From positions 132,149-196,148 of the forward strand of contig CAZFPJ010000001.1 of the NCBI GenBank assembly GCA_964521095.1: 64,000 nt of DNA, read 5' to 3'. Source of the stretch: an uncultured Candidatus Saccharibacteria bacterium. GTDB taxonomy: Bacteria; Patescibacteriota; Saccharimonadia; Saccharimonadales; 2-12-FULL-41-12. Below, piece after piece: positions 5,740 to 10,162 of this stretch. Numbering within the stretch: position 1 is the stretch's first letter; each line of letters opens with the position of its first letter. A program made the translations under genes and the position numbers. The notes beneath the pieces are model-generated. The model did not search any database, was not told where the DNA came from, and was given only the letters and a program-made list of their open reading frames with translations.

Positions 5740-7407
5740 CTATTTACGGTAAAAATAATTATCGATAATGGGATGTGGCCAAGTGGTAAGGCACCTGGTT
5801 TTGGTCCAGGCATTCGGGGGTTCGAATCCCTCCATCCCAGCCATTTTCAGGAAAAGTTTGGAATTGTCGCTCTCACGAGCGATTTTTTCATTTGTAGATT
5901 TCAATTCTTGCCACAGGCAAAAACCGCTTTCCGCCCCCTTTCGGAAAGCGGTTTTTGAGCCAGCCCCGACAGCTTTTTTATCGCCAACGGCGATGAGGGT
6001 TTTACCTCGCATTGCGAGGTTCGAGCCAAAGATTTCCGACAAAACGGCTTTTTGTCCGTTGTAATCGTTGGTATCAACGATTTTACAGATAGATTGTGCG
6101 GTTTCCAGCCAATTTCGCATAGGTTCTAACCAAGAATTTTGGTTAGCTTGTAGATTAGCCAAACTTTCCTCTAAACTTTTCTTTTCGCTCAAAATCTCCG
6201 ATTTTTTCGCCAAAAAAGTTTGGCGGTCAATGTCTTGGTCTAAATAACTGTCTAGCAAAATCTTTTGTTTGCTGTTGAGCCGGGCAATCTCGTCTTTTAG
6301 ATTTGCTACGGCGGACACGTTGTCCGCATTTTCGGCTTGCTCGTCCTCTGCCATTTTATTGGTCATAAAATTATACACTTTTTCAGACATGGCATAGTCG
6401 CTGAGCAGCGCCGAAATCTGCGGTAACAAATCTTTTTCACGAATTGCTGGCTCAACGCATTTAATGGCTTTGTTTTTGCGAGAGCAGCGATAATACGTCC
6501 AACTATGTATGTTGCCGTTTGCCTGCGTTTTGGTTTTTGTTTCGGCTGTTATTGCCATACCGCAACAAGCACAGCGTAGAACGCCTAAAAACGGAATTGG
6601 TTGCTTGGTTTGCGGTTTCTGGTGTCCTCGCTGGTCAATAACCACTTGGACTTTGTCCCATAGCGACTTTGACACGATCGGCTCGTGCCGACCCTCGTGG
6701 AGTTCGCCGTTATAGATAAAATGTCCGTAGTAAAAAGGGTTTTGTAAAATGCTTTTTACTTTGTCGTCCTTAAATAATTTTCCGCCACTGGTAATTGCTC
6801 TGTTTTCTTGTAAAAAATCGGCTATATCTGCCATTGTTTTATCGCCACCAGCGTATAGCTCAAACATTTGTTTCACAAGTGGTGAATACCGCTTGTCTAG
6901 AATAATTGTTTTTATGCGAGTGTCATTTAGGTAGCCGAACGGAGCGATAGACGGAAAATCACCGTTGCGGACTTTTGCCCTTAAACCTCGCTTGGCGTTT
7001 TCGCTCAAATTATCTACATAATACTTGGACTGACCAAACATAATAGACAACATAAACTTACCTTGACTGGTGTTCTCAAACTGGAAAATTGGAAAACGCA
7101 GATAATTGAGCGATGTTTGGTCTAACAAATAGATAATTTGTCCGCCGTCAATGGAGTTGCGAGCCAAGCGGTCGGGGTGCCACGCCAAAATGCCGTTGGC
7201 TTCGCCATTTTCAATTCTTTTAATCATAGAATTGAAAATTGGTCGTCCTGGATTTTTGGCGGTGCGTTTTTCTATAAATTCGTCAATAACCATTAAATGA
7301 TTATCTCTCGCAAACTTGCGGAGTTCCGCAAGTTGAGCGTCAATGCTCAAAACCTGCTTATCTTCCGTATCGGTACTTTTGCGAGCATACAAGATATATT
7401 TTTCCAT
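5740..7407 (-). CDS. large serine recombinase (resolvase/integrase family)
   Basis: The N-terminus MEKYILYARKSTD...QLAELRKFA is a resolvase catalytic domain with the nucleophile Ser in YARKST. It is followed by a recombinase domain, a Cys-x2-Cys...C zinc ribbon and a long coiled coil. A strong RBS (AAGGGGG) precedes the ATG at 7407. There is no stop in the unique DNA; the last ~84 codons run through the inverted repeat and antisense of tRNA-Gln. Confidence 0.85.
   Translation of the reverse strand: MEKYILYARKSTDTEDKQVLSIDAQLAELRKFARDNHLMVIDEFIEKRTAKNPGRPIFNSMIKRIENGEANGILAWHPDRLARNSIDGGQIIYLLDQTSLNYLRFPIFQFENTSQGKFMLSIMFGQSKYYVDNLSENAKRGLRAKVRNGDFPSIAPFGYLNDTRIKTIILDKRYSPLVKQMFELYAGGDKTMADIADFLQENRAITSGGKLFKDDKVKSILQNPFYYGHFIYNGELHEGRHEPIVSKSLWDKVQVVIDQRGHQKPQTKQPIPFLGVLRCACCGMAITAETKTKTQANGNIHSWTYYRCSRKNKAIKCVEPAIREKDLLPQISALLSDYAMSEKVYNFMTNKMAEDEQAENADNVSAVANLKDEIARLNSKQKILLDSYLDQDIDRQTFLAKKSEILSEKKSLEESLANLQANQNSWLEPMRNWLETAQSICKIVDTNDYNGQKAVLSEIFGSNLAMRGKTLIAVGDKKAVGAGSKTAFRKGAESGFCLWQELKSTNEKIARESDNSKLFLKMAGMEGFEPPNAWTKTRCLTTWPHPIIDNYFYRK
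5769..5843 (+). tRNA. tRNA-Gln (anticodon TTG)
   Basis: 75-nt cloverleaf with U1:A72, acceptor TGGGATG/CATCCCA, a GCC/GGC D-stem like E. coli tRNA-Gln, anticodon loop TTTTGGT (anticodon TTG), T-loop TTCGAAT and a 3' GCCA. Confidence 0.8.
5841..6003. repeat. inverted repeat A (left copy), 163 bp, perfect reverse complement of 7566-7728
   Basis: Checked base by base: RC(5841-6003) is identical to 7566-7728. It starts at the CCA of tRNA-Gln. Confidence 0.9.
5920..5957. terminator. bidirectional rho-independent terminator inside inverted repeat A
   Basis: Perfect 14-bp stem AAAACCGCTTTCCG/CGGAAAGCGGTTTT with an 8-nt loop, flanked by an A-run on one side and a T-run on the other. It lies downstream of tRNA-Gln. 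Confidence 0.6.
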
Positions 7408-7442
7408 TTTTACCCCCTTAAAACTTAAAAAGCCGACCTGGT

Positions 7443-7522
7443 GCAACACAATTCAGATAAACTAAACTGTTCCAAGTCGGCTTTTTAAGCCAAGAAAAAA
7501 GTTTATCTATAAATTGTGTTGC
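7443..7522. promoter_or_regulatory. palindromic element upstream of the recombinase start
   Basis: GCAACACAATT-CAGATAAACT ... AGTTTATCTA-TAAATTGTGTTGC is a ~21-bp imperfect inverted repeat with ~40 bp spacing. It lies in the 5' region of the recombinase gene and is a candidate operator or accessory site. Confidence 0.35.
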
Positions 7523-7565
7523 CCTTTTATTATACGACTTTTGCTCGGTTTTGCGTTAGCAAAAC

Positions 7566-7728
7566 AAAACCCTCATCGCCGTTGGCGATAAAAAAGCTGT
7601 CGGGGCTGGCTCAAAAACCGCTTTCCGAAAGGGGGCGGAAAGCGGTTTTTGCCTGTGGCAAGAATTGAAATCTACAAATGAAAAAATCGCTCGTGAGAGC
7701 GACAATTCCAAACTTTTCCTGAAAATGG
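7566..7728. repeat. inverted repeat A' (right copy)
   Basis: Reverse complement of 5841-6003 (163/163). Confidence 0.9.
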
Positions 7729-7847
7729 CTCACTTATACGAGTTTGCCCGAACCTATTTTGCGACCAAATGCGAGAAATGAGATTTTCGGCGGGTCGGGT
7801 CGGGGGCGACCCGCCGAACTGCTTCACAGATTTTTTGTCCACCTGAA
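7729..7847. repeat. inverted repeat B (left copy), ~119 bp, reverse complement of 8833-8951
   Basis: RC(8833-8951) matches 7727-7845 with no mismatch seen. It is contiguous with repeat A'. Confidence 0.85.
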
Positions 7848-7859
7848 TTTCATTAAATA

Positions 7860-8387
7860 TTGTATAATTTACTCATGAATAAAAGTCATCAACAAGCAAA
7901 ACGACTAACCACGAAAGATGTACAGCGTATGTCTAATGATGAGATCATCAAGTATGTATATCTTGAGCATAAAAGATTGAAAATGCCCGTTGAAGATGTC
8001 TGGGAACAACTTATTGATAATTTTGGAAAGCAAACTATAAGCGATATGCTCGGCGGCAGCGAAGATTCCTTGAATAGTACTGAAAATTTTGACGGTGATT
8101 CAAAATTCGGAGCGATAATTATGGTCTATGCTATTGTTTTTGGGATTATTTGGTTCATTTTTAACAGTCTTATGAATAATAAGTTTGAAGCAATGCAATT
8201 TGCTATCGTTGTTTGTGGTATCGCATCAACCTTAATCACCATATTGTTCATGAATGCTACCGGTAAAAATGAGAGAAATTATCTAAATGCTGTAAGTAAA
8301 ATACAAAGAGCCTACTCCGTATATATAAACAAAGGCTTCAACGATCTAATGGGTAGACCATTAGACTATGTAAAAGATGACAACTAG
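7860..8387 (+). CDS. hypothetical membrane protein (two predicted TM helices)
   Basis: 175 aa with a hydrophilic N-terminal ~90 aa followed by two hydrophobic helices (IIMVYAIVFGIIWFIF and FAIVVCGIASTLITILF). It overlaps the next ORF by 11 nt. Confidence 0.4.
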   Translation: MYNLLMNKSHQQAKRLTTKDVQRMSNDEIIKYVYLEHKRLKMPVEDVWEQLIDNFGKQTISDMLGGSEDSLNSTENFDGDSKFGAIIMVYAIVFGIIWFIFNSLMNNKFEAMQFAIVVCGIASTLITILFMNATGKNERNYLNAVSKIQRAYSVYINKGFNDLMGRPLDYVKDDN

Positions 8388-8829
8388 GCATTATCCGTCA
8401 TTCGTCAATGACAAAACAGATGAAGATAAGCTAGCAAACATAATAGTCAGCACATCTTTGCTAGATGAGGTTTTGTCCCTGTGGCTAACTAATCATTTTT
8501 TGAAGATTGATGGCACAAAAAAGAACGAGAATGATAGAGATATTCTTGAGAAGTTAATTTTAAGCAAATTAGGTTTTAGGCAGAAAAGCGAAGTGGTCTG
8601 TAAATTGCTGAATAGCAATTCTAGCCCAGTAAAATTGAAATCAAATTTATTTAGAATTGGCGAGATAAGAAATCAAATAGCTCATAATACTGGTTGGCTC
8701 GGAATACCTAATAACATAAAAGAAGTCTACAGCGAGTTTGATGGGTTAATGGTAGAGCTAGAAAGCTTTATAGAACTAACTTATTCTGAGTTTCAGCATG
8801 ACATGGATCATGCATATAATCCCCAATAG
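8377..8829 (+). CDS. hypothetical protein with an HEPN-like R-x4-H motif (candidate toxin/abortive-infection effector)
   Basis: 150 aa, predicted mostly alpha-helical, with GEIRNQIAHN (R-x4-H) in the C-terminal half. It appears co-operonic with the upstream membrane protein and both lie between the perfect inverted repeats B/B'. Confidence 0.3.
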   Translation: MTTRHYPSFVNDKTDEDKLANIIVSTSLLDEVLSLWLTNHFLKIDGTKKNENDRDILEKLILSKLGFRQKSEVVCKLLNSNSSPVKLKSNLFRIGEIRNQIAHNTGWLGIPNNIKEVYSEFDGLMVELESFIELTYSEFQHDMDHAYNPQ

Positions 8830-8832
8830 AAA

Positions 8833-8951
8833 CAGGTGGACAAAAAATCTGTGAAGCAGTTCGGCGGGTCGCCCCCGACCCGACCCGCCGAAAATCTCAT
8901 TTCTCGCATTTGGTCGCAAAATAGGTTCGGGCAAACTCGTATAAGTGAGCC
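8833..8951. repeat. inverted repeat B' (right copy)
   Basis: Reverse complement of repeat B. It ends in GTGAGCCA, giving AGCCA at 8948-8952. Confidence 0.85.
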
Positions 8952-8996
8952 AAGTATCGTTTTGAATTCCAAAGGTCAAGAAGGGAAACTACAGCC

Positions 8997-10022
8997 ATGT
9001 CGAAAAAACTAAAATGCCCAAAATGCCACAGTAAATACAAGAAGATAGTTGTTCAAATTGTAGACGACAGGACTATGGCCGTTTGCCAAAATTGCGGGGA
9101 CACATTTGATGTAACTGACAGGAACCAACCAGAAAGCCAGTTGCGACGGGATAAACATACAGTTCAGAAGGATAAAAACATAACCAATCGAGAAAGGATT
9201 GTGGCCTTCTCGAAAACATCCTTTGGAATTATATTGAGTTTCGTCTTATTTCCGCCATTGGGTGCAATATTGTGGTTCAGATACAAAGCAAAGCCAAACA
9301 AAAAAACCAAAGCCCTCGTGTCTAGTGTTGTCTTTATATTCTGGATAGTACTAATTGCCTCAGCTCAAAGTGGTTACAAGGCTAGTTTCGATATAGATGG
9401 AAATAAAGTAGAAATTTCATGTTCAAAATTATGTTCGCGTTTTGACAGCTATGGTGACAAAGATACCTTAAGGCATCTCGCTATCCTGGGTGTAACGAGT
9501 GTAGACTCAATGCCAAGCGACAGAAACGGAGACAGTGTTGACCTAACGGTTGATAAAGGGGCCAAGGGAGGTATTGGTTTAAGATTGAATTATAAAGATA
9601 ATAAATTAATAAGTATTGTAAATATTGAACATCCCACTATCATCTACTACTCTACCGATCAAACGATAAAGACACAAGACTACCCTAGCAGTGATGAGAT
9701 TATTAGGCTAAGATCCGAGATTGACAAGAAAAAAGCCCAGGAAGAACAATCCAGAAAAGAAGCAGAGGCAAGAGTGCCGTCTGACACAGACACCAGTGAA
9801 CTCTGCAAAAAACAGTTCAACCAGGATTATCCGTACAAGGGCAGTAAAGTTCATTCTATAATGGGAGTAATAGCAAATAATAAACGCTTTGATGACTCTC
9901 GCTTTTATAAAGTTGAGGTGACTATAGAAAATGCTTACGGCGCCAGCAGAAAATCTGTTATGGAATGTACAGTTCAAAAGTCTGGTGACAGCCTTCAGAT
10001 AACATCATTCTTTGTGTACTAA
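8997..10022 (+). CDS. hypothetical zinc-ribbon/transmembrane protein
   Basis: 341 aa. The N-terminus has CPKCHS...CQNCGD (a C-x2-C...C-x2-C ribbon), followed by two TM helices and an uncharacterised ~200 aa C-terminal domain. Confidence 0.4.
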   Translation: MSKKLKCPKCHSKYKKIVVQIVDDRTMAVCQNCGDTFDVTDRNQPESQLRRDKHTVQKDKNITNRERIVAFSKTSFGIILSFVLFPPLGAILWFRYKAKPNKKTKALVSSVVFIFWIVLIASAQSGYKASFDIDGNKVEISCSKLCSRFDSYGDKDTLRHLAILGVTSVDSMPSDRNGDSVDLTVDKGAKGGIGLRLNYKDNKLISIVNIEHPTIIYYSTDQTIKTQDYPSSDEIIRLRSEIDKKKAQEEQSRKEAEARVPSDTDTSELCKKQFNQDYPYKGSKVHSIMGVIANNKRFDDSRFYKVEVTIENAYGASRKSVMECTVQKSGDSLQITSFFVY

Positions 10023-10140
10023 ATATACTTCAACCTTGAGTGCGCATTCGGGGTGAGAACTGCCGGTGGCAGTTCGCAAGGAAACCTTCCGATGAAAGCT
10101 ATGCTTTCAATAGCGAAGTTTCGGGCCTGCCGAAGGTAGG

Positions 10141-10162
10141 TCGAATCCCTCCATCCCAGCCA
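10141..10162 (+). repeat. direct repeat of the tRNA-Gln 3' end (att-like island boundary)
   Basis: 22/22 match to 5822-5843. There is no 5' half of a tRNA upstream of it. Confidence 0.75.

Follow-up and report, generated by a model that had tools for sequence, protein, structure and literature searches.

The window analysed here, 64,000 nucleotides (nt) from an uncultured Candidatus Saccharibacteria bacterium (GenBank assembly GCA_964521095.1, contig CAZFPJ010000001.1, positions 132,149 to 196,148), contains at 5839-8952 a compact segment in which a large serine recombinase gene and a two-gene cargo are each enclosed by long inverted repeats beside a tRNA-Gln gene (Table 1). The cargo consists of open reading frames (ORFs) for a small membrane protein (ORF1) and for an HEPN-like protein (ORF2). 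The order of the parts is tRNA-x-a, recombinase gene, a'-x'-b, cargo and b'-x, where the core x is AGCCA, the final 5 nt of the tRNA gene (5839-5843). Inverted repeat 1 (IR1) is perfect, surrounds the recombinase gene and has its outer arm starting within the last 5 nt of tRNA-Gln, and it overlaps inverted repeat 2 (IR2) by the 5-nt core in its inverted form, TGGCT. IR2 leaves 987 nt between its arms. The first-pass annotation of this DNA had reported perfect repeats of about 119 bp here; according to the repeat search they are real and slightly longer, 120 nt each and 100% complementary, and a 38-nt piece of the arm occurs only twice in the window, against zero occurrences expected in shuffles. 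The surroundings had been read as a recombinase-bearing island beside a tRNA, and this was correct: the recombinase has the Resolvase, Recombinase and Zn_ribbon_recom domains (Pfam), matches the integrase family phrog_95 (5.5e-86, PHROGs) and is closest to CcrB and XisF in NCBIfam. The tRNA was the sole match in an Rfam scan.

Segment 5839-8952 is best explained as a 3.1-kb integrative element that its own large serine recombinase inserted at the 3' end of tRNA-Gln. In two other loci, L004 and L005, one and the same element sits at tRNA-Trp and at tRNA-Gln(CTG) with different DNA past b'-x, and locus L038, which has a 98% identical HEPN protein, matches the window as far as 8953 and diverges thereafter. 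This identifies b'-x as the right attachment (att) site, attR, and tRNA-x-a as attL. The domains of the recombinase, the att sites and the differing flanks (L004 versus L005, the window versus L038) are those of an integrative element of the large serine recombinase type. Excision would create attP in the form b'-x-a, and a'-x'-b is an internal inverted copy of this site, and it is for this reason that the recombinase segment and the cargo segment are each bounded by inverted repeats. The cargo is unlikely to be a recombination directionality factor, because it differs between elements.

Table 1. Features of the element and of the adjoining DNA, in window coordinates
Feature	Position	Strand	Remarks
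tRNA-Gln(TTG)	5769-5843	+	ARAGORN; Rfam 65.6 bits
Recombinase ORF, as oriented in the window	5740-7407	-	conserved part 5999-7407
IR1 outer arm a (P' arm of att)	5839-6003		165 nt, 100% complementary to 7566-7730; repeat search
Inward-facing terminator-like hairpins in arm a	5866-5883, 5918-5957, 5975-5999		flank the recombinase segment on both sides
IR1 inner arm a'	7566-7730		ends in TGGCT (7726-7730), the inverted core
IR2 left arm b (inverted P arm)	7726-7845		contains the orphan recombinase tail, the AAATAGGTTCGGGC motif and a GC hairpin
Orphan recombinase tail	codons 7731-7778, stop 7779-7781		in arm b; HLYEFARTYFATKCEK followed by stop
P-arm motif AAATAGGTTCG	7746-7759 (minus strand; also labelled AAATAGGTTCGGGC) and 8919-8932
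GC hairpin, 33 nt (TTCGGCGGGTCG..CGACCCGCCGAA)	7786-7818 and 8860-8892		in b and b'
TGTATAAT, putative extended -10 box	7861-7868	+	7 nt before ATG 7875; read from the sequence, inside the repeat-bounded segment
ORF1	7875-8387 (open frame from 7860)	+	170 aa from the likelier start, ATG 7875
ORF2	8377-8829	+	150 aa, minimal HEPN-fold protein; R98 8668-8670, H103 8683-8685
IR2 right arm b' (P arm at attR)	8833-8952		ends in core AGCCA (8948-8952), the right end of the element
Separate remnant with ORF3	8953-10162	+	outside the element
ORF3	8997-10022
22-nt direct copy of the tRNA-Gln 3' end	10141-10162		end of the remnant

A genome scan based on the recombinase gave 28 loci, mostly in metagenome-assembled genomes of Candidatus Saccharibacteria and other Patescibacteria, with 4-5 labelled otherwise. 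Self-comparison revealed the repeat flanking the recombinase in about 17 loci, down to 43% recombinase identity, and in these the terminal few nt of a tRNA gene lie within the outer arm; the targets are tRNAs for Gln, Leu, Gly, Arg, Thr, Asn, Ser, Trp and Glu. In L011-L016, L020 and L021 a second repeat abuts the first and holds 0.86-3.7 kb of cargo. The identity of the arms is 89-100% across assemblies produced by different pipelines, and this rules out an assembly artefact as the source of the layout. Such an artefact would come to mind for the window itself, where the arms are perfect and about as long as an assembler k-mer; however, the layout is shared by more than 20 assemblies of independent origin (SPAdes, MEGAHIT, JGI, Logan), and arms that are 89-97% identical, as in many loci, cannot be produced by repeat collapse. 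With this recurrence and with imperfect arms elsewhere the artefact is effectively refuted, and we give it a practically negligible probability. Among the loci with other labels, L023, L026 and L035 are assigned to Gammaproteobacteria and L031 and L037 to Phycisphaerales, which could be due to mis-binning or to real spread beyond the candidate phyla radiation.

The first-pass annotation saw the repeats as a package for the ORF1-ORF2 pair. This did not hold, as the same arms flank unrelated cargo in sister elements: HD+CYTH genes, a nuclease with transmembrane (TM) and Mrr_cat domains, PGDYG, hydrolases and a large secreted protein. The IR2 segment is the cargo bay of the element, and the IR2 arms repeat, in inverted form, the P arm of the att site. 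Over their outer 83-138 nt, which include the 33-nt GC hairpin (often 100% conserved), the cargo arms of different Saccharibacteria elements share 84-96% identity, compared to 99-100% within one element, which points to concerted evolution by recombination of the arms with each other, the cargo apparently being exchanged between conserved arms. For loci with IR1 only, a second b' copy was searched for in the flanks at hand and none was found. Conserved arms around unrelated cargo could also belong to an independent transposable cassette, one that is non-autonomous, ends in 120-bp inverted repeats, landed next to the recombinase unit and is mobilised in trans; it suits this idea that the recombinase unit has inverted repeats of its own and that some loci possess IR1 only. 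However, the recombinase and cargo units of L004 and L005 moved together to two different tRNAs, and the two ends of the cargo unit have the core in inverted and not in direct orientation. No solo cargo unit was found, but the loci were retrieved only via HEPN, ORF1 or the recombinase and no collection was searched with the arm sequence, so that a solo unit would be undetectable. We consider the cassette very unlikely and treat the segment as the cargo bay of the integrative element.

ORF2 had been described as an HEPN-like protein with an R-x4-H arrangement, and both the predicted fold and the conservation of the motif agree with this. The motif reads GEIRNQIAHN, and R98, N99, A102 and H103 are invariant in a 14-sequence alignment (62-97% identity). 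The AlphaFold2 model built from the alignment is all-helical (pLDDT, the model's confidence score, 86.4) and has the all-alpha, four-helix up-down core of the HEPN fold. In Pfam the protein has a sub-threshold likeness to HEPN_RiboL-PSP (E 9.3e-5, 22.8 bits versus a cut-off of 28.4) and a marginal one to Csm6-HEPN; HEPN_RiboL-PSP is matched by half of the family (7/14, best E 6.6e-6), and remote relatives matched only HEPN families (RiboL-PSP, Swt1-like, Csm6, LA2681-like, Abi_2), all sub-threshold. Neither NCBIfam nor PHROGs had a usable match for ORF2. The family is small, with 13 clusters in a collection of 5.8 billion proteins, only 12 proteins with E <= 0.001 in a profile search of 1.84 billion representatives, and one locus only in a metagenome scan. 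These data support ORF2 as an HEPN-fold protein with a catalytic-type motif, forming a new small family within the superfamily. The conserved R98 and H103 would make up an RNase site of the kind seen in other HEPN dimers, and from them we infer RNase activity.

ORF1 had been described as a soluble N-terminal part followed by two TM helices, which hydropathy bears out (residues 74-101 and 104-130, counted from ATG 7875); the predicted shape is a soluble three-helix N-terminal part, a two-TM hairpin and a C-terminal helix. No family in Pfam, PADLOC, NCBIfam or PHROGs matched it, and the earlier statement that neither cargo protein belongs to a named toxin-antitoxin or abortive infection (Abi) family stands in the same databases. 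The putative -10 box TGTATAAT and its spacing are conserved in L001, and the box was not called by the -35/-10 promoter scan. The location of ATG 7875 only 7 nt past this box suggests that the cargo mRNA is leaderless, with its own promoter within the repeat-bounded segment. Both reading frames were present as first annotated, with an overlap of 11 nt; the translational coupling read from it is not supported, as the overlap is not conserved (10-nt gap in L001, 8-nt overlap in L042).

The two genes are kept together in the window, L001, L038, the JGI contig of protein P0001 and L042/L043, in the last of these at 55%/75% identity, outside recombinase elements and behind a gene for a 1439-aa helicase-nuclease. 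The pair is broken in L002, L003, L004 and L044, which have the HEPN gene only, and in L039 and L040, which have ORF1 only. Some HEPN homologs have an unrelated upstream membrane partner, an 86-aa multi-TM protein in L004-L008 and a 211-aa multi-TM protein in L002, and those of L003 and L044 have no paired small gene and lie directly behind a defence system. ORF1 homologs, which form only 6 clusters, are found without the HEPN gene beside a KAP/PifA-like NTPase (L040/L041) and near a HindIII-type restriction-modification system (L039). The pairing is not obligate. This bears on the view that the pair is an addiction module, in which the HEPN protein would be the toxin and ORF1 the antitoxin, mainly stabilising the integrated 3-kb element rather than acting against phages. 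The genes are small, adjacent and overlapping, and the mobile element has no other cargo, which suits such a module; yet ORF1 has no MNT or other known antitoxin domain, the partners are freely swapped, some HEPN homologs lack a small gene paired with them upstream, and ORF1 homologs adjoin a KAP/PifA-like NTPase instead. We therefore regard pure addiction as unlikely.

The location had first been taken as usual for defence cargo, and the setting is indeed mobile and defence-like. Directly upstream of HEPN homologs, PADLOC recognised HamB of Hachiman in L044 (2e-46), DUF4297 (5e-46) with HerA (3.5e-196) in L003 and PDC-S37, Hhe-like, in L042 (9e-74); beside the ORF1-only locus L040 it recognised a PifA-like KAP NTPase. 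Other repeat-bounded segments contain defence genes as well, namely the Mrr_cat nuclease, GmrSD+HNH and AbiV. This neighbourhood supports a role in conflict or defence, as far as gene context can tell, and a toxin or abortive-infection function of the pair is plausible. The cargo would be an operon of two genes, transcribed from a promoter of its own that is probably leaderless; the HEPN RNase would be the growth-arresting effector, and the ORF1 membrane protein would hold, localise or trigger it. The toxicity and the role of ORF1 are what we infer here, and the element may profit from the module through defence against phages or through addiction. A non-toxic accessory role is quite unlikely in our estimate. 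In that case an RNA- or nucleotide-binding HEPN protein and a membrane protein would serve stimulus-dependent RNA processing at the membrane and not conflict; a role as membrane-proximal RNA processors has been proposed for membrane-associated HEPN proteins (PMC3710099), and several cargo bays contain apparently metabolic genes (hydrolases, HD+CYTH). However, the R-N-x-x-A-H motif does not vary, as is typical of catalytic HEPNs, and the family repeatedly sits next to known defence systems.

Several results weigh against the conflict module. ORF2 does not reach the threshold of any curated HEPN family in Pfam, and the model that came out confidently all-helical had no significant Foldseek match in the PDB, where sequence and profile searches were empty as well. 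PADLOC gave no system match, the best for ORF2 being PDC-S21 (9.8e-4) and CARF_HEPN (~1e-3), all partial. The HEPN family was not found in viral contigs or in the phage and plasmid collections. The structure model of ORF1 is poor (pLDDT 66.6), and no recognisable antitoxin domain was found in this protein. The ORF1 and HEPN genes also each occur alone, which is unusual for a strict toxin-antitoxin pair. Taken as a whole, a tRNA-integrating recombinase element with a swappable cargo bay, loaded in this genome with an HEPN/membrane conflict module, is nevertheless the best explanation, and one that we hold to be, on balance, probable.

The recombinase gene itself runs across the crossover site. 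In every locus examined its ORF has no stop before x, and in the window the frame continues across arm a and into the antisense strand of the tRNA gene, the tail becoming ..GMEGFEPP... On the minus strand at 5740-5843, and also in L001 and L004, the recombinase frame spans the whole antisense tRNA and yields ..G(F/L/I)EP.. tails. Gene callers will thus report artificially long recombinases that overlap tRNAs. When the gene is joined to the sequence past the other arm, the frame runs for 14-17 more codons, encodes a conserved peptide (ARTYF) and stops. The native tails so obtained, each followed by a stop, are HLYEFARTYFATKCEK in the window, SFYAHARTYFSTKSEK in L013, YIYNYARTYFIKNS in L020, PLYQTARTYFSKNY in L023 and QLYDDARTYFQENI in L004. 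The junction giving this tail would be expected if the element were excised as a circle or the segment flipped. Arm a is always open in frame, yet weakly constrained as protein, and the codon-position test found no third-position excess in it (29/25/30 variable sites in 52 codons, versus 51/34/81 in 115 codons upstream). Read on the opposite strand, the ARTYF codons are AAATAGGTTCG, so that constraint on the protein and constraint on the DNA site are inseparable. In the att table (13 loci) the P-arm motif AAATAGGTTCG lies 24 nt from the core, versus 20 nt for the GGTTCG of the tRNA T-arm. P-type half-sites of large serine integrases are offset from their B-type half-sites, and the 4-nt outward shift of the P-arm motif resembles this offset, which may explain the many tRNA targets. 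A palindromic crossover dinucleotide (GC) was considered as an explanation of the orientation freedom and ruled out, as the core of L001, L013, L014 and L016 is CACCA, in which no dinucleotide is palindromic. In L046 (1473-1475) an in-frame TGA lies at a conserved Trp of the recombinase (NAW-stop-IEPM) in a contig with 2.8x coverage, and this could be a pseudogene, a sequencing error or recoding.

A segment flanked by inverted repeats beside a recombinase gene is the layout of an inverton, and some loci look as if segments had been inverted. In L007 the cargo of the L004 element points the other way relative to the recombinase; in L019 and L046 the 3' end of the recombinase gene is joined to a'-x'-b and the native tail, and in L045 its 5' end adjoins the tRNA. 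The flip of the recombinase segment is also seen in protein fragments P0031, P0034, P0043, P0048 and P0051-54. A protein search with the C-terminal region gave 4 fragments with the ARTYF tail, 3 with the tRNA-antisense tail, and orphan ORFs of both expected types. The flipped contigs are all from short-read assemblies with k-mers no longer than the arms, where repeat-induced misjoins are possible, especially for L007, and only L007 requires the inversion of a single segment; joint reversal of recombinase and cargo could stem from integration through the alternative attP, with no inversion needed. Arguments for inversion that are independent of assembly are the concerted evolution of the arms and the structure of the gene. 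It is possible, and we put this forward only tentatively, that these Patescibacteria mini-elements, which contain attP twice and once inverted, have an integrase gene and a cargo that are independently invertible, and so both a mobility switch and an integron-like slot. Flipping, or integration through the alternative attP, would toggle the enzyme between a full-length ARTYF form and an antisense-tRNA fusion, and the toggling of the tail would be a built-in mobility switch. The conserved inverted arms would be the exchange points, and the cargo bay would work like an integron slot that takes up defence genes, the HEPN/membrane pair among them.

Literature searches did not find a description of this carrier architecture, which combines known kinds of systems: serine-integrase elements, invertons and integrase genes containing attP. 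From the large serine recombinase elements (phage integrases, SCCmec Ccr, XisF) it has the domain architecture, the short core identity and the discrete attL and attR, but it targets the 3' ends of many tRNA genes, contains an internal inverted attP, and in its P arm the GGTTCG motif is shifted outward from the core by 4 nt relative to that of the tRNA T-arm. Serine-invertase invertons such as the G segment of Mu (Gin), P1 Cin and Salmonella Hin have a small invertase with a C-terminal helix-turn-helix (HTH) and repeats of about 26 bp. As in these, a serine recombinase gene lies beside a segment bounded by inverted repeats that hold the crossover site; here, in contrast, the recombinase is large and of the integrase type, the arms are 120-165 nt, the recombinase gene is also repeat-bounded, and the element integrates at tRNA genes. 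Integrase genes containing attP are known from the fusellovirus SSV1 (int) and the Myxococcus phage Mx8 (intP/intX), which use tyrosine recombinases and are not known to have a spare inverted attP. The crossover site is likewise in the 3' part of the recombinase gene, and integration alters or removes the C-terminus, whereas the internal inverted a'-x'-b could restore the native 3' end here, by inversion or by alternative-attP integration. The yeast 2-micron plasmid has Flp, a tyrosine recombinase, with FRT inside inverted repeats. The predicted excised circle of about 3.1 kb would resemble it in having two long inverted repeats with recombinase sites and two flippable unique segments, but it has no replication gene, uses a serine recombinase and integrates at tRNA genes.

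The cargo, for its part, differs from HepT/MntA (HEPN-MNT, type VII toxin-antitoxin) in that the neighbour is a two-TM membrane protein and not an MNT nucleotidyltransferase, no MNT/NTP_transf match being obtained for ORF1 in Pfam, NCBIfam or PADLOC, and in that the sequence similarity is under every family threshold. For HEPN domains fused to TM segments, signal-responsive RNA cutting at the inner face of the membrane has been proposed (Anantharaman et al. 2013, PMC3710099). The present system is like these membrane-associated proteins in combining an HEPN domain with TM helices, but the helices are on a separate adjacent protein, which is exchangeable (170-aa two-TM, 86-aa or 211-aa multi-TM).

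Some further features deserve mention. The GC hairpin of b and b' has a folding free energy (dG) of -26 kcal/mol (z -4.4), sits just past the stop codon of the recombinase tail and matches no Rfam family; it is 97-100% conserved among Saccharibacteria elements carrying different cargo. Another two-gene cargo, that of L013 (4333-5533), also has an overlap of 11 nt. Its downstream protein of 201 aa has ISKLRNIAAHQT (RNIAAH motif) and local similarity to ORF2 (E 8e-4), its upstream partner is soluble and not a membrane protein, and neither gene has a Pfam match. In two more distant loci one inverted repeat encloses the recombinase together with its cargo, which is GmrSD_N+HNH with a methylase and an HTH protein in L028 (3188-7465) and a 517-aa AbiV-type HEPN protein with an HTH protein in L029 (127-3559). 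The ORF3 segment to the right of the cargo bay was considered as a part of the element and ruled out, as L038 diverges exactly after 8952-8953. In ORF3 a zinc ribbon at the N-terminus and a YPYG domain (NF052676, 1.9e-20) at the C-terminus are accompanied by TM helices. The remnant that contains it is separate and probably older, and the copy of the tRNA-Gln 3' end in which it terminates makes it probable that two elements were inserted in tandem at one tRNA-Gln.

The cargo represents a new and very rare HEPN family that is paired with exchangeable small membrane proteins. The family recurs by Hachiman, DUF4297-HerA and helicase-nuclease systems in ultra-small episymbionts, whose defence repertoire is poorly known. 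The carrier is a compact serine-recombinase element of about 3 kb that uses many tRNA 3' ends and whose P arm appears to imitate the tRNA T-arm. If the flipping is real and driven by the enzyme, such elements would be a self-contained genetic switch and a cassette platform at the same time, and this platform would come from an enzyme class that is widely used in genome engineering, with unusually relaxed, tRNA-directed targeting.

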